In this document: positions 541 through 54,751 of the stretch, in pieces
Numbering within the stretch: position 1 is the first letter of the stretch
Layout: the number at the start of each line of letters is the position of its first letter
From: Octopus vulgaris
Lineage: Eukaryota
Reading direction: 5' to 3'
DNA length: 64,000 nt
NCBI GenBank assembly: GCA_951406725.2
Contig: OX597817.1
Location: forward strand, 75,082,001 to 75,146,000
Notes under the pieces: model-generated
The model's input: only the letters and a program-made list of their open reading frames with translations
What the model was told of the DNA's origin: nothing
Databases searched by the model: none
Position numbers and translations under genes: made by a program

Positions 541-1276
541 TGTGTACAGTGCTCAGGTGCACTACAACTCATCTAAAGTGTATATATAATCAGGTGTAGT
601 TTCGGCGGATTTCGGAAAGCATGAGGGCCTTAAAGGATGCAGTGTCATGGCAGTCAACAACTGACGCAGGCAGTTTATTCCATGCTTCAGCAACTCTGAG
701 CATGAAAAAATGTTTCCGAAAGTCATAGGAGCTGTGTTGTTTTCTGACTTTGTAGGCATGTCCACGTGTGTTAGACACATGGAGATCAAAAAGGTGTTCA
801 GTGTTGTTGTTGGTGAGGTGGTTGATAACTTTGTGGGTGTTTACCAAGTCCATCACCAGACGCCGGAGCTTCAGTGAATCCATGCCCAGGGAAACAAGGC
901 ACTCAGAATATGGTAGGTGTCTGATGAAGGGTATGCGTTTGGTTGCACGTCTCTGGACAGATTCCAGGAGGTCAATGTTCTGAGCAAGATAGGGGTTCCA
1001 AACTGATGATGCGAATTCCAAGTGTGGTCGTACCATAGCTGTATACAGTTTTAAATAGATGGCTGGAGAGCGGCTAACAAAAGTCTTGCTGAGTGATGCC
1101 AAGACACCCTCGGCCTTCTTGACAATTTTAGGGATATACTTTGTCCAACGCAAATCACTGCTGACAGTGATGCCTAGGTCACGCTCGCAAGAGGATTTCT
1201 TGATATCAGTGTTGTGGAGGGAGTATGTGGACGCAGGGTTTTTTCTCCCAAAATGCATGGTGGTACACTTGTCCAC
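511..1276 (-). mobile_element. 5'-truncated CR1/L2-clade LINE (RT C-terminal region) with (ATT)n tail
   Basis: ORF 590..1276 has KCTTMHFG, ERDLGITVSSDLRW, LYTAMVRPHLEFASSVWNPY, LESVQRRATK, TRGH and WNKLP, typical of CR1/L2 ORF2 ends. (AAT)n at 511-540 is the 3' tail. Confidence 0.9.
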
Positions 1277-1500
1277 AGAATGTCACAGAAAAGAATTGCA
1301 AGACAAGCCAACCAGCAAGAGACCTAGGGGTGGATCAAGAACAAGATGGTTAGATAATATCCGTAGTCTCGGTTGTACTTGGGAATCCTGCCAGAATATC
1401 TAATGATAGTTGCTTCTGATAGGGCCTTGTGGAAGTGGTGCCTAAAACTCTACACCCCCATGACCCTCCCAGGAAGGGTGGGGGAAGAAGATGGATGGAT
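1277..1500 (+). mobile_element. RTE-clade LINE 3' end, right part
   Basis: KPTSKRPRGGSRTRWLDNI and ASDRALW are the RTE C-terminal RPRGRP..RW.D motif; ends in a GATGGATGGAT tail. Confidence 0.75.
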
Positions 1501-3930: not shown

Positions 3931-4089
3931 ACAGGTGTAGCTGTGTGATTAAAAAACTTGTTTTGCACCCATCTGGTTTCAGGTTCAATCCTGCTTCATG
4001 GCACCTTGGGCAAATGTCTTCTACCACAGCTCCAGGCTGCCCAATGCCTTTGTCAGTGAGTTTAGTTGACTGAAACTGTGTTGACGCTC

Positions 4090-4120
<31 letters not shown>
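3931..4120 (+). mobile_element. tRNA-derived SINE, 5' half (split by array A in its internal TA tract)
   Basis: Head GCTGTGTGATTAA...GGTTCAATCC...GGCACCTTGGGCAAATGTCTTCTAC matches the intact copies at 21738 and 58702. Confidence 0.75.
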
Positions 4121-4126
<6 letters not shown>

Positions 4127-4605
4127 GATTATATATTGAATTTTGAGATACTAGAAGGCACCAACTCAACTCAGTATCAGAGCGAGCTAGAATCCGCAAC
4201 CAGTATCACCAAATTCAAAGTGTGAATGAAAGGATTGTGTCACCAGCCCCTTCCCACCCGCGTGTAGCCAAAACAAGATGCTATGGTCATCCACTGAGAT
4301 AAAATATGGTTATCCGTAATAATGAAGGGTGAAATTAATTAATTTGGAATAATTATCAATTACACCAAGTAGTCTTCGGCATGTAAAAGCCTCATTCAAG
4401 GAAAATTTAAGTAATACTAAGCAATAAAGGGTTTAGCAACGAATTGCCTTACCACAGACCGAATTTAGAAATAGCAGTCAAAGAGTTATAGCTATTTCTT
4501 CTACTAAAAAGGGAGATCTCAGTAAAAAACACAGCAATTGGAAGGCAGACACAAACAGGTAAGAGAGAATGAATTGACTGCAATCTATCATACAATTTTA
4601 AGTTA

Positions 4606-4705
4606 TCTACGGACGCACGTTTCGAAATCAAGTTTTTAGGAAAGCATAAGAATTAAATATTAAATAATTCTACGTTACCCAAACTTCTTTTCTCTTCAGC
4701 GTAGA
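4606..4705 (-). ncRNA. Type I hammerhead ribozyme motif (array A, copy 1)
   Basis: Reverse complement of the motif at 5516-5615. Confidence 0.8.
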
Positions 4706-5200
4706 ATACTATAATCATAAATGATTATATATTGAATTTTGAGATACTAGAAGGCACCAACTCAACTCAGTATCAGAGCGAGCTAGAATCCGCAACCAGT
4801 ATCACCAAATTCAAAGTGTGAATGAAAGAATTGTGTCACCAGCCCCTTCTCACCCGCGTGTAGCCAAAACAAGATGCTATGGTCATCCACTGAGATAAAA
4901 TATGGTTATCCGTAATAATGAAGGGTGAAATTAATTAATTTGGAATAATTATCAATTACACCAAGTAGTCTTCGGCATGTAAAAGCCTCATTCGAGGAAA
5001 ATTTAAGTAATACTAAGCAATAAAGGGTTTAGCAACGAATTGCCTTACCACAGACCGAATTTAGAAATAGCAGTCAAAGAGTTATAGCTATTTCTTCTAC
5101 TAAAAAGGAGATCTCAGTAAAAAACACAGCAATTGGAAGGCAGACACAAACAGGTAAGAGAGAATGAATTGACGGCAATCTATCATACAATTTTAAGTTA

Positions 5201-5300
5201 TCTACGGACGCACGTTTCGAAATCAAGTTTTTAGGAAAGCATAAGAATTAAATATTAAATAATTCTACGTTACCCAAACTTCTTTTCTCTTCAGCGTAGA
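5201..5300 (-). ncRNA. Type I hammerhead ribozyme motif (array A, copy 2)
   Basis: Reverse complement of the motif at 5516-5615. Confidence 0.8.
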
Positions 5301-5515
5301 ATACTATAATCATAAATGATTATATATTGAATTTTGAGATACTAGAAGGCACCAACTCAACTCAGTATCAGAGCGAGCTAGAATCCGCAACCAGTATCAC
5401 CAAATTCAAAGTGTGAATGAATTGGTTGCGGATTCTAGCTCGCTCTGATACTGAGTTGAGTTGGTGCCTTCTAGTATCTCAAAATTCAATATATAATCAT
5501 TTATGATTATAGTAT

Positions 5516-5615
5516 TCTACGCTGAAGAGAAAAGAAGTTTGGGTAACGTAGAATTATTTAATATTTAATTCTTATGCTTTCCTAAAAACTTGATTTCGAA
5601 ACGTGCGTCCGTAGA
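5516..5615 (+). ncRNA. Type I hammerhead ribozyme motif (array A, copy 3)
   Basis: Stem I TCTACG(5516-21)/CGTAGA(5610-15); core CTGAAGA 5522-28; 69-nt stem II closed by GAAA/TTTC with AAGTTT/AAACTT and AGAATTA/TAATTCT; GAAA 5598-5601; mini stem III CG-TG-CG; GUC cleavage triplet ending at 5609. Confidence 0.82.
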
Positions 5616-6111
5616 TAACTTAAAATTGTATGATAGATTGCCGTCAATTCATTCTCTCTTACCTGTTTGTGTCTGCCTTCCAATTGCTGTGTTTTTTACT
5701 GAGATCTCCCTTTTTAGTAGAAGAAATAGCTATAACTCTTTGACTGCTATTTCTAAATTCGGTCTGTGGTAAGGCAATTCGTTGCTAAACCCTTTATTGC
5801 TTAGTATTACTTAAATTTTCCTCGAATGAGGCTTTTACATGCCGAAGACTACTTGGTGTAATTGATAATTATTCCAAATTAATTAATTTCACCCTTCATT
5901 ATTACGGATAACCATATTTTATCTCAGTGGATGACCATAGCATCTTGTTTTGGCTACACGCGGGTGGGAAGGGGCTGGTGACACAATCCTTTCATTCACA
6001 CTTTGAATTTGGTGATACTGGTTGCGGATTCTAGCTCGCTCTGATACTGAGTTGAGTTGGTGCCTTCTAGTATCTCAAAATTCAATATATAATCATTTAT
6101 GATTATAGTAT

Positions 6112-6211
6112 TCTACGCTGAAGAGAAAAGAAGTTTGGGTAACGTAGAATTATTTAATATTTAATTCTTATGCTTTCCTAAAAACTTGATTTCGAAACGT
6201 GCGTCCGTAGA
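6112..6211 (+). ncRNA. Type I hammerhead ribozyme motif (array A, copy 4)
   Basis: Same sequence as 5516-5615, 596 bp downstream. Confidence 0.82.
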
Positions 6212-6395
6212 TAACTTAAAATTGTATGATAGATTGCCGTCAATTCATTCTCTCTTACCTGTTTGTGTCTGCCTTCCAATTGCTGTGTTTTTTACTGAGA
6301 TCTCCCTTTTTAGTAGAAGAAATAGCTATAACTCTTTGACTGCTATTTCTAAATTCGGTCTGTGGTAAGGCAATTCGTTGCTAAACCCTTTATTG

Positions 6396-6444
<49 letters not shown>

Positions 6445-6450
<6 letters not shown>

Positions 6451-6660
6451 GTTTGTGTTTTTTTTGTGTGTGTTCCTCTCTCCACTCCCTGACAACTGGT
6501 ATTGGTTTGTTTACATCCCCATAATTTAGCAGTTCAGCAAAAGAGACTGATAGAATAAGTATCAGACTTCAAAAAATAAATACTGGGATTGATTTATTTG
6601 ACTAAATCCTTTGAAACGCTGCCCCAGTATGACCGCAGTCCAAGGACTGAAGCAAAAGGT
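6445..6660 (+). mobile_element. tRNA-derived SINE, 3' half
   Basis: GACAACTGGT...GTTTACATCCCC...AGAATAAGTA...GACTGAAGCAAAAG continues the SINE begun at 3931. Confidence 0.75.
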
Positions 6661-6843
6661 AAAAATATAAAATAAAATTTTTATATATTTTTATAAATTT
6701 TAAGATTTTATTTAGGCATAGCAGTATTAATAACCTGGTGTTAGAGCTCGATATATGTTAAGAATAAAGCATTAGTCAAGTACGGAGCATAATACGAAAT
6801 TAAATAAATGGTAAGGAACAGGAATTATGTAATCAACTCCATT

Positions 6844-6924
6844 AGCTAACAGCTATTTCTGCTATAAGATGCAGTGCACTCAGAGCTGAGTGCCTGTGCA
6901 TCACCTTATGGCTTCCTCAGAGCT
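6844..6924 (-). ncRNA. Solitary, slightly degenerate type I hammerhead motif
   Basis: Minus strand reads AGCT-CTGAGGA-a-GCCATAAG..GATGCA..GCACTCAG-CT-CTGAGTGC..TGCATC-TTATAGC-a-GAAA-TAGCTG-TT-AGCT: 4-bp stem I, long stem II, near-palindromic stem III, GUU triplet. Confidence 0.65.
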
Positions 6925-6974
6925 TCTAAAGTAGAAACAGCAATAAACTAATGAAGTTGATTGCATAATTAGAT

Positions 6975-7355
6975 GCAGGCATGGCTGTGTGGTAAGAAGT
7001 TTGCTTCCCAATTTCATGGTTCCATGTTCACTCCCACTGTGTTGCACATTGGGCAAACGTCTTCTATAGTTTGGGTCTGACCAAAGCCTTGTGAGAAACT
7101 GAAAGAAGCCCATCATATACATAGATATATATATATGTGTGTGTGTTTTAATGTCTGTGTTTGTACCCTACTGCCACTTGACAACTGGTGTTGGTGTTTT
7201 TAAGTCCCTGTAACTTAGCAGTTCAGCAAAAGAGACTGATAGAATAAGTACCAGGCTTAAAATGAAAATAAGTACAGGGATCAACTAGTTCCACTAAAAT
7301 TCCTCAAGGTGGTGCCCCAGCATGGTCACAGTCTAATGATTGAAGCAAGTAAAAA
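6975..7355 (+). mobile_element. tRNA-derived SINE, near full length
   Basis: GCAGGCATGGCTGTGTGGTAAGAAG head, internal TA/TG tract, GAAGCAAGTAAAA tail. Confidence 0.8.
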
Positions 7356-8165
7356 AAAAAAGAATTCCTGTTCCTTAGCCATTTATTTAATATCAACACA
7401 CACACACTGACAAAATATTCTTCTCCACTTCATAACTTGCACACAATATCGTTTTGCCTGCTTTATTCAACAGGGTTTGTGTGAATTACTGAAGCATACC
7501 TCAGTAACATATTGATGTCATTGTTTATTAGTTTTTATTTAAAGAGAGACGAAAATATTAGTGAAAATGGGCCTTTTTTTTGTACTTAATTTTCACTTCC
7601 TCTTTACTTTCAGCTTTTATTTCATTTACTTTCTTTTAATTATTACATTTAGTTTTTTTTTTTTTGTTTCATTCTTTCATTGATCATGCCTTTCTTCCAT
7701 TCATTTCTTCTTTTTGCTCTCTTTCCTTCTCTTTTTTTTTATTGTACCTTTGTTTTCTATCTTGCCCTCTCTTTTTTCTTCCTAGCTTTTCTTTCTTTTC
7801 CCTTACATTTCTTTATCATTTCTGTCTTCCCTTTTCCTCTTTTTTCTTTCTTTTTCTTTAATTATTCATATATATATGTATTTGTTTCAGATACTAGCTA
7901 ACTACATCTTTGTTCCTTCTGATACAAAAACTTATAATTTCCTATATAGAAACTACTTTCTAGAATTTCATTGCTTACTGAATACAATATGACAGATATT
8001 CATTCCATAATTTAAGTTTATATTTGGGATTATTTTCCTCTTAGTTTCTTTACAACTTTGTATTGTGATATAATATACTATAACGTTATCATCGAGAAAT
8101 GAAATGTTTATTTTACCTTAAAGTGTATTGTTTGGTTAGCAAAGTTTATGAAAGTTGTATCAGTA

Positions 8166-8275
8166 TACGAGGGGTGTATGGAAAGTCTTGAGCCTCAAAA
8201 AAACAAAACATGGTACAAGACTTCTGATGAAGGTACAAGACTTTGAGGCTCAAAACTTTTCATGTATCCCTTGTA
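8166..8275. mobile_element. Tc1/mariner-type MITE
   Basis: TIRs TA-CGAGGGGTGTATGGAAAGTCTTGAGCCTCAAA / TTTGAGGCTCAAAACTTTTCATGTATCCCTTG-TA; TA flanks; internal GGTACAAGACTT duplicated. Confidence 0.75.
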
Positions 8276-8341
8276 GCTTTGTCACCAAAAGTTTTTCATC
8301 TAGAAAATATGGGAATCAAATTTTATTGCCATTATTTCTCA

Positions 8342-8400
<59 letters not shown>

Positions 8401-8608
8401 GTCCTGAAAATAGAATTTGAATAATATAGCTGGAACACTGGTTAAATGACACATTTCTTTGTTTCCTGAGAATAAGTATGTCATATAAAGCTATGTTTCT
8501 ATATTGTTAAATAACAAAATTACATATGAAGAAATAGTATGTCGTATATATATATATAAATAGGAGTGGGGTATGTGTGTGTGTATATATATAAATGGGA
8601 GCGGGGTA

Positions 8609-8640
<32 letters not shown>

Positions 8641-8763
8641 CACAATAATACCTAACTTTATGAGACCCTGTGTTTATGAGTTTTCACTTTATGAATGTTC
8701 CCCGAGAACAAATTAATTCATATATTGAGGCATTGCTGTTTGTGTGTGTGTATATGTGTATAT

Positions 8764-8813
<50 letters not shown>

Positions 8814-9015
8814 ATATGTAAAGGTAAGATCCAAGAATCAAATTGTTGGAAGTTAGTAAGCTTCAAGCAATCCATAGAAGGTATAAAAAACAACTTTCAG
8901 GAACAATAGTGGTTTATTGATGTAGAAGGTTGTAAATATTTCCCATATCGAAGATTCATAAGTTGTAAAAGATTATTTTATAGTTCATAGTTAGCCCCCT
9001 GGGATTTTGTGTACT

Positions 9016-9065
<50 letters not shown>

Positions 9066-9245
9066 ATCTAAAAATTACTGAAACTAAAAATGTTAGGGTA
9101 GATTCTACTGATTAGTGAAACTATTTTTAATTATTATAAATGAACTATTACTAAAATGGCTATAATGGAAACCAAGTCAAAATGATTTTTAAAACAAAAA
9201 AAACAACAAACATTTATTTACGTCTAAATACGTTATCCATTTCAG

Positions 9246-9612
9246 CATTCGCCGTGTCTCAGCTGCCACCGAACAAACTGTACCAAAGCGAAATGTGCAG
9301 GTAATATTTCAAGGAATGAAAAAAGGACGTCTTGGTGGTACGAAGTCGATGATCCAGCCACGTTCCCGAAGCAACAAAGAAATTGAGTCAGATTTCTCAC
9401 AAGAGTATTGTCGAATGCGCTCGAATACTTTGCCCAGTGTTCAAGAGAAGAAGAAAACACCTCGTACAAAGAGCAGTGACCAAACAGCATTATTGGAAAG
9501 CCGGCACTCAAGTCAGCGAAGCAGTTCAGATCATTCTACAACAACCAGTACCCAAGGAAGTGTAGAGAAGCTTATTCATCCTTGTCACACATCTACAACA
9601 CAGATGGCATAG
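9246..9612 (+). CDS. Probable 3'-terminal coding exon of an unidentified upstream gene (Ser/Thr/basic low-complexity tail)
   Basis: Acceptor TCCATTTCAG at 9236-9245; open frame from 9247 (IRRVSAATEQ...RMRSNTLP...TTQMA*); GC/CpG richer than flanks; not repeat-like; AATAAA near 9619 and 9731. Confidence 0.6.
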
Positions 9613-9640
9613 TTCTAAAATAAATAGAACATTGTCTGTG

Positions 9641-9680
<40 letters not shown>

Positions 9681-9769
9681 CGTATATGTATATCTCACTA
9701 AAGCTACTTATGTATTTATGTAAATTCTGTAATAAAGCTATTTAATTTCCCATGGTATTTTTCACTCAT

Positions 9770-10039
9770 TAATCCATTATCATTTAAATTGGTCATATCT
9801 GGCTCAAATATTTGATCTGTTTTATGTTAGAGCTAGCCATATCAGGCCCAAATATTCTACCTGTTCTACGTTAAAAATGACCAGATCTGGTCTCTCACAT
9901 CAACCCTACAATGTCATTCTAAAATAAATAATCACATTGCTGAAATCTCAAAGCTACAAGGTAATGGATATTTAATCCAAAACAATAACAATAAACAAGC
10001 ATTATATTTCACAGAGTAATCTGAATGCTAAAGGGTTAA
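9770..10039. mobile_element. piggyBac-type MITE copy
   Basis: Ends AATCTGAATGCTAAAGGG-TTAA; same family as 37084-37283. Partial 3' copy at ~10517-10613. Confidence 0.6.
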
Positions 10040-10049
10040 AATAAATAAT

Positions 10050-10515
10050 CACCGGTATCCATGCTAGTGGAGCGCTAAGAGTATCATACGAGCGGGATTG
10101 ATGCCAGAGCAACAAGCTGGCCTCCATGCCGATGGCACGTAAAAAGCACCATTCGAGTGTGATCGTTACCTGTATCGCCTTACTGGCACTTGTGCTGGTG
10201 GCACGTGAAAAAACATTCAAGCGAGGTCATTGCCAGTGCCACTGGACTGGCTCCTGTGCAGTTGACACATAAAAAGCACCATTTGAACGTGGCCGTTGCC
10301 AGTAGTGCCTGAGTGGCCCTTGTGACGGTGGCACGTAAAAGCACCCACTACACTCTCAGAGTGGTTGGCATTAGGAAGGGCATACAGCTATAGAAACTCT
10401 GCCAGATCAGATTAGAGTCTGGTGCAGCAATCTGGTTCACCAGACCTAAGTCAAATCATCCAAACCATGCTAGCATGGCAAGCGGACATTAAACAATGAT
10501 GATGATAATGATGAT
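10050..10515 (+). mobile_element. SINE/LINE-tail repeat with internal GGTGGCACGTAAAAAGCACC repeats and (GAT)n tail
   Basis: Related copy at ~16540-16860; shared GGTTGGCATTAGGAAGGGCAT...CCATGCTAGCATGG...GATGATGAT end. Confidence 0.7.
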
Positions 10516-11135
10516 CAAATCTCAAAGCTACAAGATAATGTATGATTAATTCAAAACAATGTGAATAAATAAGCATTACATTTGGCAGAATAATCTGAAT
10601 ACTAAAAGGTTAAGCCATGCATGACTAAGTGATAAAGAAGTTCATTTTATAATCATGAAATCCTGAGTGTGTGACAACTTTATTATATCTCCAGGTGACC
10701 TGTACCTTGTGAATGAAATTAGGCAGATGGAAGCTGATGAAGTTCATTGGATGGAGTGTATCTGTGATTCAAAGGTCTTTGTCACATACTGAGTCACATT
10801 GATTCAGTTTCAGAAGTACATTAAGAAGACATGGTTCTATGGAATACACAGCCACTTATATGTTAATTTAACAACTCTAATTCTCAGGTGATTGAACAAC
10901 TGAATGATCATTGTCAAAATTTATAAGACAATCTGTTTCCATCATCAAACTATGTATAATTGACACTTAACTGTAATACCCTTCAACCACTGGCTCACTT
11001 AACTGTCAAGTTTACATTACAATACTCTAATCTCTCTAACACTTTTGATACCAACCCACCTGAGACCGCAGTGATTTAAATTAAAATCTACCCTCAAAAT
11101 CACATGTTAATTTCTGTTACAAACACCAGCATAAT

Positions 11136-11421
11136 TTTTCATGCTAAGAATTGCTGAAGCATGGAACAAACTGCTGGCATCAGTTGTTAGTTGTCGGAGA
11201 ACTGCATCCTTCAAAACTTCCATGCTTCCTGAGATTCACCAACACTACACCTGATTTTCCTCCCTCCATACACACACAAGCATGTATCTGACTCATACAC
11301 TGTTCACTTCCCAGACATTTGTACATTACTGCATATGCTTTATACGAACTTTTGACAAGTTGTGGTACACCTGAGCACTGTATACAATAATTTCATTATT
11401 GTTATTATTATTATTATTATA
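11136..11421 (+). mobile_element. CR1/L2 3' end fragment with (ATT)n tail, nested in a MITE-like repeat (~11037-11638)
   Basis: Encodes FMLRIAEAWNKLLASVV, matching the end of the 590..1276 ORF; shares the CACCTGAGCACTGTA.ACAAT tail. Confidence 0.85.
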
Positions 11422-12019
11422 ATGATAATGTTATGAAAAGGTAATACCCAACACCAGAGTAAGCCTATAACCTGTCAATCCAGAAGTTCCCTTCTATTTT
11501 TCTTATGCTCACCATCTATCACTAGCTTGCTAGGCCTGTCATGAAATGATGAAGATATTTTGATAAATTCTTAATCATTTTTAAAATTGATTGAAACCAA
11601 TTGTAATTTCAACAGAAATATAGTAACAAAAGAGTTAATTGTTAAATCCAAAACTCACATAATGTCTTTGATTCTTCTTTTAACAATTCTATAGTGTTTT
11701 AGTTTCCTAATTTGATATCAAACACTTTGATCTATTTTCTTCAAGAATTACATCCTCCTAAAATTTTTGCCTTGTCCATATATTCTAAGCAGCAACAATT
11801 GAGATTAAGAACCTGCCTGAGACTGCCTGTTTCAAAGTGATCTCAAAATATTCCATCAAAATTCTATGTTAATTTGTTCCAAACACCAGCATAATAATGA
11901 TAAAAGTATTTTGAAAAATTCTTCATTATTTTCGAAAAATAATTGAAGTAAACACAGTGTATCTCAACAGAAATAGGGTAAAAAAAAAAAGGTTGAACAT
12001 CAACTATAATATCTTCTGT

Positions 12020-12300
12020 AAGGGTGGATGGCCTAGTGATTAGAGTGTTACACTCGTGATCACAAGATCATGGTTTCAATTCCTGGACCTGGTGGTACAT
12101 TTTGTTCTTGAGAAAAACACTTCATTGCATGTTGCTCTGTGATCACTTTGACACCTGAAATGTGGTACACCATGCACTTATTCAGGCAATGTTGATTTGA
12201 TGGAGGAGTGAGCTAATGTTCACAAACATTCAATCATTATAAACAAATCATTTGTACAGATTGTTCAGCAAGAAATTGCAGAACCTACCATCATTATAAT
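12020..12300 (+). mobile_element. Second tRNA-derived SINE family
   Basis: A-box-like TGGCCTAGTG and B-box-like GGTTTCAATTCC; related inverted copy at ~14560-14820. Confidence 0.6.
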
Positions 12301-13019
12301 ATCCTCTTCCCCATCATGTCATCATTCTTAGAATAGAACTCTATGATGCTCTGTCCCTGTCAATTAGCAGTTAGTAAAATGGACTGAGAAAATAACTACC
12401 AGGCTTTAAAAATAAGTACTGGGGTTGATTCATTTGACTAAAACCCTTCAAGGCGATGCCCCAGCATAACTGAAACAAGTAAAAGATATAATAAACACAA
12501 GTATTTACTTACATAGAAGTCCTTTTATTTGTACAACAGAATTAAGACAAAACATATGCGAAAATAACACCAATAGGGAAGTATGTGGCCCTTATGGATT
12601 TGGAAAACATTTGTAGAAAAACAATATAAACCAGGGTTTCTCAACCATTTATCTACAGACCCTTTTGATTACTCTTTTATTCTGGTGGACACCCATAGCC
12701 ATTCAATGTTTAAAAACTAGTTTTATAGAAACTTTTTTTCAAAATACTTATTTCGTTTTTCACACATTAATTCGTGTAGGTTTACTGTGTAAAATTTTAA
12801 AGAAAGAATTTCTTGCAATACATACATCTAAAGCAAAATTTTTCAGGCCCCTTAAATTGTGGACCTCAATTTACTATTTTGTTACATTGAACCCCACAAA
12901 ATCTTTTGAGGACCATTGATGCAAACAAAGGTAAACTATCAACTAGAACTATATTTAAATCTTAGACTGAAACTGAAAAAATAAAACCAACTGACCAGTC
13001 AAATCAAAAAAGATGGTTA

Positions 13020-13540
13020 GTTGTAGAAATGGTACTTTTAGTGAGGGGAGAGAAAGACAGAGACTGAAAGAGAAGGGAGAGCCATGCAGAAGAAGCAAGA
13101 GTAGGAATAGATGGAATAAGAAAAAAGGAGGAGAAAATTAAGAGATGAACTGATATGAAAAAGGAGTGTGGAAAGAAAAAAGAAAAAAGGCAGGTGATGT
13201 CGTACACAATGGAGGAAATAGAAAGAGAATAAAGAGAGGACAGATTGATAAATAGAAATGTAGATAAAGCCAGAATGATAGATGTAGAGAAAGACAGGAA
13301 ATATAAAAGGAAGGATGCACAAAATAAAAACAAAGATGGAGAGGTAGACAGAAAGGTAGCCAGAAAAAGCAATAGAGAGGTAAGAATGAAGAAGAATAAA
13401 TAGATAAACAGAGTTGTTGCACTAAATGGAAACCACTGATAGTGGGTGCAGAAAAAGTATGTAGCTTTATAATAGTAAAATGGGGCACAGAAGGATGATG
13501 AAGGAACATACAGAAATAGGAAAAAGCTCAAAGAATGTGG
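13020..13540. repeat. Purine-rich (GA) low-complexity tract
   Basis: Strong A/G strand bias, which produces spurious F/L/S-rich ORFs on the minus strand. Confidence 0.8.
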
Positions 13541-13544
13541 ACAC

Positions 13545-14512
13545 ACCCACCCCTCATCAGTTATTAACCAAAAATCGTCACTGCTTAGTGCTGGATTTGC
13601 CTATCGACTAGCAATCAAGACTCTAAGGCTGCAAAAGCTGCTCACAACATTTGTGCTGTGTATGGAGAGGGTGCCATAGCTGAAAGAACCGTTCGTGATT
13701 GGTATGTCAAGTTCAAAACTGGAAATTTTGACCTCAAAGATGCACCTCGTTCTGGCTGTCCAAGTGAGTTCGATGAAGAGCAAATAAACCAAATTTTGCA
13801 TGAAAATTCTTGTCAAACAAGTAAACTAGCAGAGAAAATGGAATGCTCCCACACTGCTATAGAGAAGCATCTTCACTTGATGGAAAAGGTTCACAAGTAT
13901 GGAGCATGGGTTCTGCATGTTTTAAGTGATAACAACAAAAATCAATGAGCCACAGTCTCCACTGGTTTGCTTGCTCGTCACCGCTCAACTCATGGACACA
14001 AGCAACGATTTCTTTACCAAATCGTTACTGGAACCAAATGATCAATGCGGAACTCTATGTTCAACAAATGGAAGAATTCAACATGACTGTTCAAGAGAAA
14101 CGATTTAATCGGTAGCATGGAGTTCTTCTGCTGCAAGACAACGCCCGCCCTCATATTGCCAATATGACCAAAGAAGCCATTCAAAAGCATGGCTGGGAAG
14201 TGCTGCCACACCCGCTGTACTCTCCTGATTTGGCACCAATGGATTTCCACCTCTTTCAATCTATTTCAAATGATATGCGTGGAATTTCATTCAATACCGA
14301 TGCAGAATGGAGAACTTGGTTGGATCAATTTTTCAAGTCAAAATCAGGTGATTTCTACCAACGAGGTATTGAAAATCTTGTCTGAACGTAGGGAAGAAGT
14401 TGTAAACAACAAGGGTGAATACATTATTGATTAATTAGTTGTTATTTTTTATTAAACCTTTTAAAAAATTTAAATTTAAAAAAACGGCAGGAACTAGTTT
14501 CCAACCCAATAT
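13545..14512 (+). mobile_element. Decayed mariner (DD34D-type) transposon
   Basis: Fragments YGEGAIAERTVRDW...DAPRSG, GAWVLHVL (WVPHEL), QDNARPH and HPLYSPDLAPMDFHLF; 3' TIR-like GGAACTAGTTTCCAACCCAA-TA. Confidence 0.9.
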
Positions 14513-15135
14513 ATCATCAGGATACATAAGACTGATGTGATCTCTGATATTTTGTTATGGACTTACCTGTCATAGATGACAAATCAGTGTTCCACAATTC
14601 CTTGCTGAACAACTGGCACAGATGATTTGCTTATAGTAATCAAATATTTGTGCAGTACATTAACTCGCACACTCCATCAAATTGACATTACCTGTACAGA
14701 TAGCAGTGTCATATGTTAGATGTCAAAATGATTGCAGAGCAATGTAAGATGAAGTGCTTTGCTTATGAACACAATGCACAGCCTGGTTCAGGAATCAAAA
14801 CCATGATCACTTGATTGTGATTAGTGAGCAGATATCTATTAGTAAACAAATAAGTGATAAATTTCTTTTTGGATAGGAATGCATAGCAGGAATTGAAGTA
14901 AAAATGTCAATGAAATACTTATCAATCTTTGAGTGTATTCACAAACTGCAGTAGTGAGTTATATCTATTTTTTAAACCTATTGACAGCTAGGGAATCAGA
15001 GCATAGTGTCTTTGCCATGGTCAAGCCGTTTGTACCTACATGTAAACCATTAACTATATATGAACTACTGCCATCATTTATCTTGCATCAGTCATCTAAA
15101 GCAGATGAAAACTGAAAGCCTGTCATGTATATATA

Positions 15136-16412
15136 CGAGGGAAAGTCAAAAATTATACACTCTTGTTTTTTCAATGTATTTGCACAAAAGTAAGGGATAA
15201 ACAAGTATATCACTTTTCTATATAGTCTCCTTCCTTTCCAATGCACTTGGTTCAGCAATCCACAAGCTTGCATATTCCCCACAAGAAGGTTTTTGGTTGT
15301 TTGTACAACTGCTTTCTTCATATCTTCATCCATAAGAAATCAACAACCTCATAAACCATTTTTGAGCAGTCCAAAGTTATGATAGTTAGAAGGGGTGAGA
15401 TTTGGTCTGTAGGCAGGGTGTTCCAGCACCTCAAAACCCAATTGGTTAATGGTTTCAAAAGTCTGGGTGGCTGTGTGTGAGCATGCATTGTCATGCAACA
15501 ACAAAACTTTCTTCAACAATTGGCTCCAGCATTTGGTGCAAATTGCTGGCTTCAGTTTGTTAGCCAGCAAAGCACTGTATCTTGCACTGTTGATCGTACA
15601 CCCCTTTTCTAGATAGTCTAGTATAGGACCTTTGAGTCCTTAAAAAGGGTTAGCATCACCTTTTCTGTGAAAGACCGAGTCTTGAATTTCTTCCTTGCTG
15701 GCAAACCAGGATGTTTCCACTACATACTCTGTCTTTTGGATTTTGCCTCATAATGATGGACCCACATTTCATCTCCTGTGACTATACAGCTCAAAAATTC
15801 ATCGACCTCATTGTTGTAGTGATAGAGTAAATGTTGGTAGACCTCAAGGTGCTTGTGCTCTTCTGTAAGCTCTCTTGGCACTCATCTTGCACAGACGTTA
15901 TGGAAGCTGAGCACATTGTGGATGATTTGATAGGTAGAACCATGACTAATCTGCAGAGAACGAGCTACCTCATTGATGACAATTCACTGGTTCACTTATT
16001 ACCTTCTCTTGAGCTTGCTGAATTTTCTCGTCAGTAGTGGAGGCTGACAGGCATCCTGCTCCATCTCCATGTGTTACATTTGTCTGGCAGCTTTTAAACT
16101 TCTCAATCTACTCATACATGCTTCTATGCAATAGTGCACTGTCCCCATATTGTGCTAAATGCCTCCAACGAATTTCAGCATCTGACATACCTTCTATCGG
16201 GAGAAATTGGATCACTATTCTTTGTTGCACATTGTTAGTGCAGTGGCCAAGCTTTCACTGTAAAGCCAGAAAGCAAAATGACGTGATCAGGTTCAAACTT
16301 TGATCACACGATCAAAATAGTAACAACTATAAGCACAATTGTGCAGAAGATAGTGTGACAATAATAAAGATACGCTAAGGTCAATGTGCAGATAATTTTT
16401 GACTTCCCCTCA
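15136..16412 (-). mobile_element. Decayed full-length mariner transposon
   Basis: TIRs TA-CGAGGGAAAGTCAAAAATTAT / ATAATTTTTGACTTCCCCTCA-TA; LLLHDNACSH and LEHPAYRPNLTPSNY. Confidence 0.9.
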
Positions 16413-16498
16413 TATATGTGTTTGTGTGTGTGTGTGTGTGCGTGCATGCGTGTGTGTGTATGTGTGTATCTATGTATATGTGTGTGTGTATGTATACA

Positions 16499-16537
<39 letters not shown>

Positions 16538-17060
16538 AATGGAAATTGTAGTTGTGATACCTGTGCTAGTGGCATGTAAAAAGCACCATCCGTACGGGGC
16601 CAATGCCAGCGCCACCTCAACTGGCTTCCATGTCGGTGGCACGTAAAAAGCACCAACTGATCATGGTCATTGGCAGCCTCCCCTGGCACGTAAAAAGTAC
16701 CCACTACACTCATGGAGTGGTTGACGTTAGGAAGGGCATCAAGCTGTAGAAACACTGCCAGATCAGACTAGAGACTGGTGCAGCCTCCTCGCTTCCCAGA
16801 CCCCGGTCAAACCGTCCAACCCATGCTAGCATGGAAAACGGATGTTAAACGATGATGATATATATATCATCATCATCATCATTTAATGTCCGTTTAGTCA
16901 AACAAATCGACACCAGGACTTATTCGTAGTAAGCCTAATATTTATTCTAGCAATCACTTTTCCTGAACCATTAAGTTAGGGAGATGTAAATACACCAATA
17001 TTGGTTGTCAAGCGATGGTGGCAGAACAAACACGGACATACAAAATCATACACACACACT

Positions 17061-17114
<54 letters not shown>

Positions 17115-17115
<1 letters not shown>

Positions 17116-17323
17116 TTTTATTCTTTTACTTGTTTCAGTCATTTGACTGGAACCATGCTGGAGCACTGCCTTTAGTTGAATAAATTGACCACAGAACTTA
17201 TTCTTTGTAAGCCTAGTACTTATTCAGTCGGTCTCTTTTGGCAAACCACTAAGTTACGGGAATGTAAACACACCAACATTAGTTGTCAAGTGATGGTGGG
17301 GGGACAAACACAGATACACAAAC

Positions 17324-17356
<33 letters not shown>

Positions 17357-17490
17357 AACAACAGGCTTCTTTCTGTTTTTGCCTACCAAATCCACTCACA
17401 AGGCCCAAGTAGAAGATGCTTGCCTGAGGAGCCACGCATTGGGACTGAATCCAGAACTATGTGGTTGGGAAGCAAGCTTCTTTCCACACA
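17115..17490 (-). mobile_element. tRNA-derived SINE
   Basis: Reverse complement of the 21738 family. Confidence 0.75.
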
Positions 17491-17498
17491 TATATATA

Positions 17499-18748
17499 TA
17501 GAGTATGGTGAATAAATTGTCATCTAAATAATGCAAAACTGAAAATAACACTGACTTCTCATTTTAACAGATATATTTTACAAAATTACATAAAAATATC
17601 TTGAAATACTAAAGAGTAAATTTATTCAATAAAATTGCCATTGGCTTCAACCACGACCTCAAGATAACTTCAGAATCTCCTGAAAATCTTCTGGACGGTC
17701 TCCTTGTTTAAGTTGGTGAAAGCTACCATAGTCAGTTTATCTTTGGTATTACAACATGTTTTGTTGGTCTCCCGCTCAACTGCATTCCACATATAGTAAT
17801 CAAGGAGGCTGCAGTCTGGCCAGTTAGGTGGCCTGATGTTAGGGGTGATGTGGTCAAAGAAATTGTCAGATAGCCATGACAAGGTTCTTCTGATTGTGTG
17901 ACATGGTGCAGAGGCCTGTTGCTAGACATAGAGTCTTCCAGCAGCCACTCTCTTGACCCAGGGCAGCACTACCTCCTCTAGGCACTTGATGTAGGCCTCC
18001 ATGTTAAGTCTAAGGCCATGTGGGAATATGAATGGAGGCATGATGTTGACTGGATTTTTGCTTTTTATCACTTTCGGTATGTTTTGGAGACACGGCAAGC
18101 CAACAGTTGTTCTGTGCATTCACCATCTGATCCTGGCAGAAATTTTTCTCAACCGAGAAAAACCAAAGCATGTTCAGTTGAAGGAGATTGTTGAGGTTGT
18201 TAAAAAGCTTTGTAGCATGGTCTTTTCTCTTGTCATTGATGTCTTGGGATAAAAATTGGCCCTTTCTTATCTTGTGTGAGGAACACCAAATGTCTTCATG
18301 CACTACCTACCTGATAAGGAACTCAGACATTCCCACGTCTCTGGCGATAGACCTGATTGACTTGGAGAGATTGTTCTCAATCTGACCCTGCATCTCACCA
18401 ACAAATTCAAGAGTTCCTTTTTAATCAGAATGATCAGAGTGAGTTTTCTGAGCAGCCATCCTTTCGTAATCACCACAAGACTCATCCAAATCTTTCCAAA
18501 CCTCTGCACTGTCCTCAGATTAACACTCAAACACTTTCAAATGTTCATATTGGAGCTTCTGGCACAAATGCCGAGTAGTACAGCATATTGATTCCAAATT
18601 TCTGGCAGAGTGAGTTGTGTCATGGGGCTGTTTTTCTCACAGACGGTGCCCAACTGGCCCTTCTATACTGTATAGTCAACAAAATCAAAAACAAACAATG
18701 TGCATGTGTGAAATAAAAAATATAAAATAGTAACAATTTACCCATCAC

Positions 18749-18754
<6 letters not shown>
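17499..18754 (-). mobile_element. Decayed Tc1/mariner-superfamily transposon (possibly maT-like)
   Basis: RPPNWPDCSLLDYYMWNAVE (WPPNSPD.NPLDY motif), WFFSVEKNF, YIKCLEEVVLPW; degenerate TIRs at both ends. Confidence 0.85.
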
Positions 18755-18810
<56 letters not shown>

Positions 18811-19218
18811 AAAACAGGTTGCTTGACCGCAACCTGTTTGCCTGTCCCTTTTCTTATATACAATATATATACTGAACTTTACAGAAGTTCCTGCCGGTAA
18901 TCGGCTATATTTACATACCGAATTCTACCAGTAAATAATTGGGGTTTTTTTAAAAGCCTTTATAGAAATTATTTACTCTTATTATTATATTACTATTTGG
19001 ATTTTTCACTCCATTATGACAACCCAATAGTTCCCAATCTTATGGAACTATTTTTGTAGTGCGCATGGCAAAATTTTGGAGGGAAGATTTACGAATTCAA
19101 ACGTCTATGTAGGTTTAGCTTTTGCTCACTTTCTTCAAATATTTTGATGTCGCATGGTCAGAAGGTTTGAGGTACGTAGCATTTGATAAATCTATGATAA
19201 ATCTTTTTCAATGGAAAG

Positions 19219-19331
19219 CTGTGCTGAAGAAGGATGTGAAATATATATGCAATGTATATAAAATATATATCAAAAATATATATGAAATATATATTCAATA
19301 TGTTTATAATCCAGAAACATGATGTTCACAG
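19219..19331 (+). ncRNA. Type I hammerhead ribozyme motif (array B, copy 1)
   Basis: Stem I CTGTG(19219-23)/CACAG(19327-31); CTGAAGA 19224-30; 83-nt stem II a-GGAT...ATCC-a; GAAA 19314-17; stem III CA-TGA-TG; GUU triplet ending at 19326. Confidence 0.75.
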
Positions 19332-19861
19332 ATAACCGCCAGACTTCGTTTTCGTTATCTATTCCTTCTGTTTTGCATATGTGAATTACAGAGTTTGGCG
19401 TGCCCGGAGTCCAACTTTGATAGAAATAAGCATTCTTGACTGCTATTTCTATTTTTTCGGTATGCGGTCAAGCAACCTGTTTGCCTGTCCCTTTTCTTAT
19501 ATACAATATATATACTGAACTTTACAGAAGTTCCTGCCGGTAATCGGCTATATTTACATACCGAATTCTACCAGTAAATAATTGGGGTTTTTTTAAAAGC
19601 CTTTATAGAAATTATTTACTCTTATTACTATATTACTATTTGGATTTTTCACTCCATTATGACAACCCAATAGTTCCCAATCTTATGGAACTATTTTTGT
19701 AGTGCGCATGGCAAAATTTTGGAGGGAAGATTTACGAATTCAAACGTCTATGTAGGTTTAGCTTTTGCTCACTTTCTTCAAATATTTTGATGTCGCATGG
19801 TCAGAAGGTTTGAGGTACGTAGCATTTGATAAATCTATGATAAATCTTTTTCAATGGAAAG

Positions 19862-19974
19862 CTGTGCTGAAGAAGGATGTGAAATATATATGCAATGTAT
19901 ATGAAATATATATCAAAAATATATATGAAATATATATTCAATATGTTTATAATCCAGAAACATGATGTTCACAG
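19862..19974 (+). ncRNA. Type I hammerhead ribozyme motif (array B, copy 2)
   Basis: Same motif, +643 bp. Confidence 0.75.
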
Positions 19975-20504
19975 ATAACCGCCAGACTTCGTTTTCGTTA
20001 TCTATTCCTTCTGTTTTGCATATGTGAATTACAGAGTTTGGCGTGCCCGGAGTCCAACTTTGATAGAAATAAGCATTCTTGACTGCTATTTCTATTTTTT
20101 CGGTATGCGGTCAAGCAACCTGTTTGCCTGTCCCTTTTCTTATATACAATATATATACTGAACTTTACAGAAGTTCCTGCCGGTAATCGGCTATATTTAC
20201 ATACCGAATTCTACCAGTAAATAATTGGGGTTTTTTTAAAAGCCTTTATAGAAATTATTTACTCTTATTACTATATTACTATTTGGATTTTTCACTCCAT
20301 TATGACAACCCAATAGTTCCCAATCTTATGGAACTATTTTTGTAGTGCGCATGGCAAAATTTTGGAGGGAAGATTTACGAATTCAAACGTCTATGTAGGT
20401 TTAGCTTTTGCTCACTTTCTTCAAATATTTTGATGTCGCATGGTCAGAAGGTTTGAGGTACGTAGCATTTGATAAATCTATGATAAATCTTTTTCAATGG
20501 AAAG

Positions 20505-20617
20505 CTGTGCTGAAGAAGGATGTGAAATATATATGCAATGTATATGAAATATATATCAAAAATATATATGAAATATATATTCAATATGTTTATAATCCAG
20601 AAACATGATGTTCACAG
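20505..20617 (+). ncRNA. Type I hammerhead ribozyme motif (array B, copy 3)
   Basis: Same motif, +1286 bp. Confidence 0.75.
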
Positions 20618-20906
20618 ATAACCGCCAGACTTCGTTTTCGTTATCTATTCCTTCTGTTTTGCATATGTGAATTACAGAGTTTGGCGTGCCCGGAGTCCAA
20701 CTTTGATAGAAATAAGCATTCTTGACTGCTATTTCTATTTTTTCGGTATGCGGTCAAGCAACCTGTTTGCCTGTCCCTTTTCTTATATACAATATATATA
20801 CTGAACTTTACAGAAGTTCCTGCCGGTAATCGGCTATATTTACATACCGAATTCTACCAGTAAATAATTGGGGTTTTTTTAAAAGCCTTTATAGAAATTA
20901 TTTACT

Positions 20907-20959
<53 letters not shown>

Positions 20960-20976
20960 ATATATATCTGTGTATG

Positions 20977-21630: not shown

Positions 21631-21737
21631 ATTTTAAACTACACTTTCTTCTTACTCAATAGCCACTTGCATTTTAGATAAGATCATAGTATATAGTTAA
21701 TGATTTGAAAAACTGTCATGTTACACGCATATGCACA

Positions 21738-22105
21738 TAGGAGTGGCTGTGTGGTAAGTAGCTTTCTTACAAACCACATGGTTCCGGGTTCAGTCCCACT
21801 GCGAGGCACCTTGGGCAAGTGTCTTCTACTATAGCCTCGGGCTGACCAAAGCCTTGTGAGTGGATTTGGTAGACGGAAACTGAAAGAAGCCTGTCGTATA
21901 TATGTATATATATATGTATGTGTGTGTATATGTTTGTGTGTCTGTGTTTGTTCCACCAACATCGCTTGACAACCGATGGTGGTGTGTTTACGTCTCCGTA
22001 ACTTAGCAAAAGAGACCAATAGAATAAATACTAGGCTTCCAAAGAATAGTCCTAGGGTCGATTTGATCGACTAAAGGCGGTGCTCCAGCCTGAAACAAGT
22101 AAAAC
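21738..22105 (+). mobile_element. tRNA-derived SINE, well-preserved copy
   Basis: GGAGTGGCTGTGTGGTAAG (A box), GGGTTCAGTCCC (B box), GGCACCTTGGGCAAGT core, internal TA/TG tract, GAAACAAGTAAAA tail. Confidence 0.85.
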
Positions 22106-37904: not shown

Positions 37905-38268
37905 TTTACTCTTTTACTTGTTTCAGTCATTTGACTGCGGCCATCCTTGAGCACTGCCTTTAGTCGAGCAAATCGACCCCAGGACTTGTTCTTTGGAAGC
38001 CTAATACTTAATCTATCGGTCTCTTTTGCCTAACCGCTAAGTTACAGGGACATAAACACACCACCATCGGTTGGGAGGACAAACACAGACATATATATAT
38101 ATATATACAATGGGCTTCTTTCAGTTTCCATCTACCAGATCCACTCACAAGGCATTGGTCGGCCCGAGGGTATAGTAGGAGACACTTGCCCAAGGTGCCA
38201 CGCAGTGGGAATGAACCCAGAACCATGGTTCCAGGTTGGTAAGCAAGCTACTTATCACACAGCCACTC
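37905..38268 (-). mobile_element. tRNA-derived SINE
   Basis: Reverse complement of the 21738 family. Confidence 0.85.
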
Positions 38269-38285
38269 GTGTTTATGTATATATA

Positions 38286-38458
38286 GGTGCAGGCATGGGT
38301 GTGTGGTAAGAAGCTTGCTTCCCAACCACATGGTCCTCAGTTCAATCCCACTGTGAGGTACTAGGAGTAAGTGTCTTCTATAACCTCAGGTTGACCAAAT
38401 TGTAAGAGGATTTGGTAAATGGAAACTGAAAGAAGCCCATCGTATATATGCGTGTGTG

Positions 38459-38489
<31 letters not shown>

Positions 38490-46614: not shown

Positions 46615-46986
46615 TACTCTTTTTACTTGTTTCAGTCATTTGACTGCGGCCATGCTGGAGCACTGCTTTATTCGAGCAAATCGACCCCAGGACTTATTCT
46701 TTCTAAATCTAGTACTTATTCTATTGGTCTCTTTTGCCGAACCGCAAAGTCATGGGGGCGTAAACACACCAGCATCAGTTGTCAAGTGATGTTGGGGAGA
46801 CAAACACAGACACACAAACCTATATACGACAGGCTTCTTTCAGTTTCCATCTACCAAATCCACTCACAAAGCATTGGTCAGCCCGAGGCTATAGTAGAAG
46901 ACACTTGCCCAAGGTGCCATGCAGTGGGACTGAACCCAGAACCATGTGGTTGGTAAGCAAGCTACTTACCACACAGCCACTCCTGC
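46615..46986 (-). mobile_element. tRNA-derived SINE, well preserved
   Basis: Reverse complement of the 21738 family. Confidence 0.85.
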
Positions 46987-47019
46987 ATATATGTGTGTGT
47001 GTATGTGTATATATATATT

Positions 47020-53780: not shown

Positions 53781-54751
53781 GGCGAAATCACGTGGTACTT
53801 GCGAAACCTATTTTTATTTATTTATTTGTTTCTTTGATTCCGCTCTTTATGTTGTTTTTTTTTTTTTAAATATATAATTTATATATGTATTTTTGTTTCT
53901 TTAATATTCCGCTAAGCCTTTTATTTCTAAAAGCTTTTCAATTCAATTGTAAATTTTTACGAAGAGAAAAGATGAAAAAAAAAATGTGAAAGGAAAAAAA
54001 TAAACCCACCCTAATCCCTTCCCTTCACCCCCACAAATGTCAGCCTATCAAGATCTTTTGTTACGTATGTAGTAAGCATTATCTCTTTAAAAAAAAGCTG
54101 GTAGTTTTCCTGGTTTTAATTCGTTCTTTATTTTTGTGTAATGTGTGTGTGTGTTAAAAGCTTTTTCACTAGTCGTTTCTCTTCTTAGTTCATTTACGCT
54201 ATTATTATGTTAAAATTGTGAAATTCTACGTTATCATATATAAGTAGTATATTAATCTCCTCGTGTGTGCCTGTCATATATATCTATCTCTAGTGTGTGT
54301 GTGTATGCACACATTTGTGTTAAGTACCATGGTGAACGTGTGTGTTAATTATTTATCCGTACGTATGTATATATGTCTTTATTTTTTATTCGTTTCAGAT
54401 TCGAGTATGATCCCTTTCCGCCTTATTTTCATTCAGAATGGCTAATCTGGCCTCACGATTTTGCAAAATGACACGAATCACGTGCTTAATTTTACTTGAA
54501 TGATACAATAATAATGAAAATGCTGTAGGATTACCAATACAAAAAAAGTGTTTTGCCTTTTTTTTTTTTCAAAAAAAAAAAAAGGACCTTATTGTGCAGG
54601 AATACATGAATCTACATTTAATTTTTTCAATTCTTGACTCTAAGTGAGTCTTGAAAAACCCAGTCGTGCATTCTTCAGTTGTATAACTCCACTTTATGTG
54701 GTCATATAACGGACTTTTATGTGCAGCCCTTTGCCGCTAAGGGTATGGTGC

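Follow-up and report, generated by a model that had tools for sequence, protein, structure and literature searches.

Hammerhead-bearing tandem repeats in Octopus vulgaris are probably non-LTR retrozymes moved by Penelope-like elements

The window analysed here is a 64,000-base pair (bp) stretch of the Octopus vulgaris genome (contig OX597817.1, positions 75,082,001 to 75,146,000). It holds two tandem arrays, A and B, made of non-coding units of 596 and 643 bp, each with one putative hammerhead ribozyme. We put at about 0.7 the probability that both arrays are young insertions of retrozymes without long terminal repeats (non-LTR retrozymes). These would have moved through a unit-length, probably circular RNA, copied in trans by the reverse transcriptase (RT) and GIY-YIG endonuclease of a Penelope-like element that probably belongs to the Hydra clade.

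Structure of the arrays and their hammerheads

Array A has a minus-strand arm placed head-to-head with a plus-strand arm. The two arrays and their flanks are laid out as follows.

4092..4121, no strand: (TA)n target tract left of array A (from the sequence)
4122..5421 (start approximate), minus strand: inverted arm of array A, about 2.2 units of 596 bp (from sequence comparison)
5423..6397, plus strand: direct arm of array A, 1.64 units, stopping at the family's short 3' end, 192 nucleotides (nt) past the predicted cut
6397..6448, no strand: (TA)n tract right of array A
18753..18808, no strand: (TA)n tract left of array B
18808..18828, minus strand: inverted stub of array B, about 21 bp, which extends as far as the short-end region and carries a small internal deletion (read from the sequence)
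18829..20910, plus strand: array B, 3.25 units of 643 bp, stopping at the family's long 3' end, about 298-307 nt past the predicted cut
20909..20967, no strand: (TA)n tract right of array B

These positions and unit lengths agree with an initial annotation of the window, which had described near-identical arrays that lack an open reading frame (ORF) and had put their copy numbers at about 2.2+1.6 and 3.2. It had also given both arrays (TA)n flanks and a 5' inverted arm. The flanks are present on both sides of each array and the inverted arm is present in A, but in B it is only the short stub. Units are 98.9-100% identical to one another in A and 99.5-99.7% in B, where units 2 and 3 are identical and unit 1 differs from both at two sites. 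The outer end of the inverted arm of A lies 491 nt after the cut, which is atypical for its family. In trimers of the two units, stop-to-stop frames reach at most 51-70 amino acids (aa), with none above 70 codons. There is no ORF for RT plus GIY-YIG between the repeats, and no match to a Penelope-like protein anywhere in the window. A and B are tandem non-coding units, as in non-LTR retrozymes.

Every unit of A and B has one CUGAAGA...GAAA...NUH core, and each array has at least two consecutive motif-bearing units. The motifs are of the minimal type.

4606..4705, minus strand: hammerhead motif, predicted cut at 4612
5201..5300, minus strand: hammerhead motif, predicted cut at 5207
5516..5615, plus strand: minimal type I hammerhead, GUC, predicted cut after 5609; stem I 5516-5521/5610-5615, CUGAAGA 5522-5528, stem II of 69 nt, GAAA 5598-5601, self-complementary stem III
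6112..6211, plus strand: hammerhead motif, predicted cut after 6205
19219..19331, plus strand: minimal type I hammerhead, GUU, predicted cut after 19326; stem I CUGUG/CACAG, CUGAAGA 19224-19230, stem II of 83 nt, GAAA 19314-19317, near-palindromic stem III
19862..19974, plus strand: hammerhead motif, predicted cut after 19969
20505..20617, plus strand: hammerhead motif, predicted cut after 20612

The single motif per unit and the cuts after 5609 and 19326 had been predicted in the initial annotation, and both are recovered on the sequence. An Rfam scan of the window at the gathering score gave zero hammerhead matches, a miss that fits the long stem II (69-83 nt).

Does the motif bear the marks of a working fold? 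The core proves to be conserved across genomic copies, a check that had been proposed with the annotation: in 11 natural hammerheads of related families it is invariant except for N7. Pairing is kept in 93% of 143 cells, against 21-40% in slid controls. No shuffle in 500 reaches that level, although the 11 motifs are mutually related, so this count is not a probability. Both sides have changed at 10 of 13 hammerhead pairs, including all six pairs of stem I and three of stem II. An extra unpaired base precedes stem II in 8 of the 11 motifs. Across the genome, a related core pattern has 411 matches and its reversed control five. Stem III forms no hairpin within a monomer, and the computed energy of its self-duplex is -8.8 to -11.2 kcal/mol in A, B and D/F (families D and F are introduced below); the A-to-G change of the young A subfamily retains its pairing via G-U. 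From this comparison of sequences, the motif appears to be the minimal dimeric hammerhead of Penelope-like elements, with putative activity. One feature had to be given up. The sequence AGATAAC, which follows the motif in both arrays and had been listed as a shared feature, reads AGGTGAC in older A copies and AGTTAAT in others, and it was dropped as a common signal.

Genome copies and the anatomy of insertion

The genome searched comprises 2.8 Gb in 227 contigs, and each query was followed to its best 40-150 candidates. The copy-number check suggested at the outset gave 1805 first-look candidates for A and 1356 for B. The 40 candidates scored in each family are 96-100% identical and dispersed on many chromosomes. 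A and B are young, dispersed, mobile, high-copy families.

The initial annotation had also called the two families distinct, and this needs revision. Past the cut, the alignment of A with B is significant (none of 300 shuffles is as good), and the core motif of this region has 4948 exact matches in the genome and none in a control. Further families, labelled C-G, were found through the core motif and the hammerhead pattern. A 3' module of about 220 nt is common to them. It lies downstream of the hammerhead in all 30 hammerhead loci looked at, and the further families have the same two ends. Families D, F and G form closed units of about 480-570 bp that have no coding capacity. Because A and B align past the cut and the module is common to several families, their sequences mark A, B and the further families as one radiation rather than unrelated repeats. 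In the window the module is placed as follows.

5700..5917, plus strand: 3' module in A, with homologues in B and the further families (core motif starting at 5740; the short end falls at about 5807 and the long end at about 5902-5917)
19400..19633, plus strand: 3' module in B (core motif starting at 19436 and again at 20079 and 20722)

In the module, the short end is flanked by complementary words and the long end is directly preceded by an AT-rich hairpin (for instance at window 5758-5850 and 19456-19565). Both recur in A, B and other families, and a hairpin also precedes the long end of the autonomous family H1 (see below). Elsewhere, a mariner-like transposon sits within stem II of an older A-family hammerhead (L145:2950-4240). 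Unrelated elements with long-stem-II hammerheads occur in (TA)n with inverted arms (the flanks of L068 and L122, and L183). It is likely that the genome holds many more hammerhead element families.

The ends of the insertions are fixed at one side and scattered at the other. Among 64 A 3' ends beside TA, 43 lie at 188-204 nt and 19 at 286-308 nt past the cut; among 33 such B ends, 8 lie at 188 nt and 20 at 305-313 nt. Wherever the element itself is TA-like these distances are upper bounds. Contigs from other samples have loose ends at these two 3' positions as well. Loci with two arms pair one short with one long end in 16 of 23 cases for A and 6 of 13 for B. This leaves a tail, the offset from short to long end, of about 95-110 nt in A and about 119 nt in B (overall about 100-120 nt). 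Conversely, 5' breakpoints are scattered round the unit, with only 1 of 70 in A and 0 of 36 in B within 10 nt of the cut. Since they do not pile up there, copying evidently runs on across the cut. Complete units can succeed one another, up to five or more of them, with no intervening ORF.

Published hallmarks of Penelope-like elements are partial tandem repetition, a 5' copy in inverted orientation and, at one end, a 30-40-bp tail (PMC8557442; PMC3846280). Partial tandems, 5' truncation, head-to-head inversion and a one-end tail are all present in A and B insertions. The microsatellite (TA)n target is likewise common to A, B and the autonomous Penelope-like families. Target-site duplications are unreadable within (TA)n. 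We are highly confident that mobilisation is of the Penelope type, and the description of A and B as non-autonomous, (TA)n-targeted mobile repeats with a hammerhead is borne out by the dispersed copies, the lack of an ORF and the anatomy. At one locus (L007:735-2375), 1.8 A units lack TA flanks and are bordered on either side by a copy of a stretch of about 280 bp from another repeat. This looks like a capture during template switching or repair.

Template, partner and rival explanations

The proposed mechanism runs as follows. In read-through transcripts two self-complementary stems III would pair, and the hammerhead dimers so formed would cleave the transcripts to unit-length RNA of 596 or 643 nt, which would then be ligated into circles. 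The endonuclease would nick a (TA)n tract. Reverse transcription would begin within the 3' module, at either of two AT-rich positions some 190 and 300 nt beyond the ligation point, and would continue round the circle for a variable length to leave non-integer tandems. Synthesis of the second end would begin at the other of these positions, which would account for the inverted arm and the tail of about 100-120 nt.

One clue to the template is the distribution of variants among tandem units. It was read from 24 A and 23 B loci, with L006 excluded as a duplicate of L014 and with sites by gaps, homopolymers and alignment ends filtered. When a variant is shared between loci, every tandem unit of the arm carries it (56/57 cases in A, 20/21 in B, 76/78 overall). 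Variants confined to some units are private in 32/33 cases for A and 32/33 for B (64/66), where private means relative to about 24 sampled loci out of over 1000. In addition, 11 variants in A and 14 in B are both private and present in all units, whereas double hits would be expected to give fewer than 0.03. The mean distance within a locus is 0.22% in A and 0.33% in B, and that to the nearest other locus 0.38% and 0.73%. In arms of three or more units, 36 of 37 sites in A and 13 of 17 in B have an all-or-one pattern. Finally, A>G/T>C changes make up 17 of 29 private all-copy variants but 16 of 67 single-copy variants (Fisher p=0.002). Because the spectra differ, the private all-copy variants are not DNA mutations that were homogenised later. 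Their spectrum is like that of polymerase error or editing before integration. Given the contrast between all-unit and private some-unit variants, and the distinct spectrum, it is quite probable that each insertion was built from one unit-length template. The copying of a monomer, as initially proposed, gains support to this extent.

Was that monomer a circle? Insertions end 190-310 nt into the cut-to-cut monomer, and the cut site itself is copied over. Therefore, a ligated circle is the simplest template, and we lean towards it over repeated template jumps. Assembled contigs of three runs that we guess to be RNA cover the unit, and some bridge the cut; such contigs cannot show ends, strand or level.

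The genome offers several candidate partners, and all Penelope-like families examined end in (TA)n. A Neptune-like family with an intact 781-aa ORF for RT plus GIY-YIG is present in many copies. So are three Hydra-like families with intact ORFs, H1 (957 aa), H2 (717 aa) and H3 (727 aa), for which many endonuclease copies are identical (H2 loci L236-L265; H3 loci L266-L295). H1 has (TA)n targets and a long-stem-II hammerhead. It ends 34-42 or 148-160 nt past the cut, although some of the long values in this tally are internal junctions and not ends, and its tail is about 118 nt. Seven H1 loci with two arms have one short and one long end. The ends of H2 differ by about 70 nt and its hammerhead core is CCGAAGA with GUU. 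For H3 only one end was seen. Neptune-like tails, read by eye, are about 32-36 nt. A Hydra-type partner is indicated because the tails of A and B (about 95-119 nt) are close to that of H1 and far from those of the Neptune-like family. We give a Hydra-clade partner roughly even odds. The comparison suggests that tail length may mark the mobilising clade.

Some details of these families can be added. The H1 protein (L176, L177 and L186) has a long Asn-rich insert and no Pfam match, and it contains RWK and DKT motifs. The 781-aa Neptune-like family has a 378-aa frame upstream. The Neptune-like families seen at L106, L123 and L125 lie in (TA)n, one of them with a short hammerhead about 490 nt past the endonuclease. 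The protein of a related element has a 70% match to an Octopus sinensis entry.

Several observations pull away from the reading preferred here. The initial annotation had invoked a Penelope-like RT in trans, and families with intact RT and GIY-YIG ORFs are indeed present; however, the linkage check did not turn up an ORF-bearing element with the module. The partner search used as queries the GIY-YIG family, two Hydra-type endonuclease fragments, two distant Hydra-type proteins, the DNA of families F, D and G and the hammerhead pattern. No autonomous element with the module was found by module profile in 228 Penelope-like ORF locus records, save for neighbouring or nested separate insertions. 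None of 214 module or hammerhead locus records (overlaps included) runs into an ORF. Two suggestive junctions between module and ORF were followed and resolved as composites. The likeness of H1 and H2 3' ends to A and B is not significant, with 65-319 of 500 shuffles scoring as high; the best alignment of B with H1 is in register with both ends, yet 72 of 500 shuffles equal it. The variant sample covers about 2% of copies, chosen mostly as best matches, and variants are called private relative to this sample. Moreover, variants have spread partially at one of 37 sites in A and four of 17 in B in arms of three or more units, the window's B included, and some local duplication or conversion does occur in the arrays. 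The GUU triplet of B is a weaker one under the NUH rules. As for activity, poor or weak in vitro cleavage is reported for minimal hammerheads (PMC4209133), and cleavage failed in 8 of 9 dimers of Xenopus retrozymes (bioRxiv 10.64898/2026.07.22.740005).

What if no circle was ever involved? In this scenario the template is a linear, uncleaved transcript slightly over one unit long, tandems arise by repeated RT jumps between redundant ends, and the hammerhead trims ends or acts rarely. The monomer bottleneck, the fixed ends past the cut and the lack of 5' stops at the cut fit equally well, as does the weakness of minimal hammerheads. Naiad and Chlamys elements give the same tandem and inverted structures without a canonical hammerhead (PMC8557442), and self-priming with template jumps has been proposed (PMC3846280). 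However, all families examined have kept a single hammerhead in each unit through compensatory changes, with stems III ready to dimerise, and arrays of five or more units demand many exact jumps. We regard a linear template as unlikely. A different possibility, discussed in bioRxiv 10.64898/2026.07.22.740005, is that single terminal-repeat fragments inserted and were then expanded and homogenised in place, satellite-like, by unequal crossover and gene conversion. The five partly spread variant sites are what this would produce, and so is the identity of units 2 and 3 in the window's B against the two differences of unit 1. Yet the arrays are short, dispersed and non-integer with fixed ends, the inverted arms themselves hold tandem units, all-or-one patterns prevail and the spectrum of all-copy variants is unlike that of single-copy mutations. 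Expansion in place is accordingly given a very low probability.

It might also be that A and B are merely 5'-truncated terminal repeats of an autonomous Penelope-like element that was not sampled. The depth of the search leaves some room for such a parent, as do the many Penelope-like families present. However, five or more complete units occur without an ORF, whereas the autonomous H1 repeats in tandem at a spacing of 4.6 kb that takes in its ORF, and D, F and G likewise form closed units without coding capacity. The initial annotation had asked whether its units occur only as terminal repeats of a known autonomous element, and no such element is among the scanned loci. We give this possibility next to no weight. 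Returning to the retrozyme reading, a much bolder form of it can be sketched, in which octopus genomes would harbour a radiation of circular-RNA parasites that is wholly non-coding and long-lived, with at least six families, about 5000 or more unit copies and no remaining likeness to an autonomous parent. Hydra-clade RT would recognise the structured 3' module. The variants would be the first population-level evidence that Penelope-type tandems come from a single monomer circle by rolling reverse transcription, with a second start staggered by about 100-120 nt, and the A>G/T>C excess may reflect RNA editing of that template. This composite is tentative, and we hold it to be rather less probable than its negation.

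Surroundings and relation to known systems

Array A is located in the tail of one copy of a repeat that resembles a short interspersed element and ends in TA/TG tracts. Many copies of this repeat exist (window 3950-4050, 6962-7150, 21724-21931, 38077-38477 and 46796-46990). A 139-codon frame without a Pfam match lies between the arrays (9193-9612, plus strand) and may hold an exon, in which case the arrays could be intronic. A 447-codon frame further on (54710-56053, plus strand), also without a Pfam match, resembles what we take to be the N-terminal exon of KANSL1. Two other fragments are presumably the 3' part of an element like a long interspersed element (590-1282, minus strand) and part of a mariner-like transposase (13589-13948, plus strand).

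How new is such a system? The novelty claimed for it initially was overstated, for non-LTR retrozymes, their link with Penelope-like elements and the circular-template model are all in print (PMC7229834; PMC4209133; bioRxiv 10.64898/2026.07.22.740005). A and B are probably cephalopod members of the non-LTR retrozymes, or non-autonomous Penelope-like elements, and both their kind and the circle model were already published. The circle model is a proposal for Penelope-like elements and retrozymes (PMC4209133; PMC7229834). Movement by Penelope-like machinery was proposed in PMC7229834 and argued for vertebrates in bioRxiv 10.64898/2026.07.22.740005, and the origin of Penelope-like tandems, inversions and tails has been called undefined (PMC8557442). 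The population evidence for a monomer template seems to be unpublished. The O. vulgaris repeat paper lists 190 Penelope-like families, and neither 'hammerhead' nor 'ribozyme' appears in its available text or the one supplement searched (PMC13282606). No report of a cephalopod retrozyme was found in the literature searched; Dfam, Repbase and the O. vulgaris repeat library were unchecked and may already list a consensus.

What the octopus adds, besides extending retrozymes to cephalopods, is material. Thousands of young, short copies offer a testable signature, with one sequence type per insertion and ends fixed well past the cut. The double ends and the monomer bottleneck make the circle model directly testable, and a 600-nt substrate with three intact candidate Hydra-type proteins could be used in assays.

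The comparison with known systems places A and B between several of them. They are like metazoan non-LTR retrozymes (PMC7229834; bioRxiv 10.64898/2026.07.22.740005) in having low-GC non-coding tandem units with one type I hammerhead each, in thousands of copies alongside autonomous Penelope-like elements. Rolling reverse transcription of circles has been proposed for those as well. In the text consulted, neither source speaks of cephalopods. Their units of 596 and 643 nt compare with about 170-400 nt in tested invertebrate retrozymes and 51-972 bp in a vertebrate survey. They differ in their hammerhead, which is of the minimal Penelope type with a 28-83-nt stem II rather than canonical, and in what is documented here of their insertion, with ends and inversions of the Penelope type and (TA)n as target. 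A homologous autonomous pseudo-long terminal repeat (pLTR) was not found among the scanned loci, whereas 24 of 57 Xenopus families have one (bioRxiv 10.64898/2026.07.22.740005). The plant LTR retrozyme, with its LTRs, type III hammerhead and 4-bp target duplication, is excluded by the type I topology and the head-to-tail units.

The hammerhead itself resembles the minimal dimeric form (PMC4209133) in its short stem I, palindromic stem III/loop 3 and extra base before stem II, but its stem II is 69-83 nt rather than 7-8 bp, and B uses GUU. The Chlamys non-autonomous elements of green algae, e.g., MRC1, are also non-autonomous Penelope-like elements with multicopy head-to-tail insertions. Unlike A and B, they resemble autonomous 3' ends and mostly lack hammerheads (PMC8557442). 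With the Penelope-like elements of that paper, A and B share the (TA)n target, the hammerhead near the 3' end, partial tandems, the inverted 5' arm and the one-end tail. They differ in being non-coding and in the length of that tail, which is about 100-120 nt compared with the published 30-40 bp.

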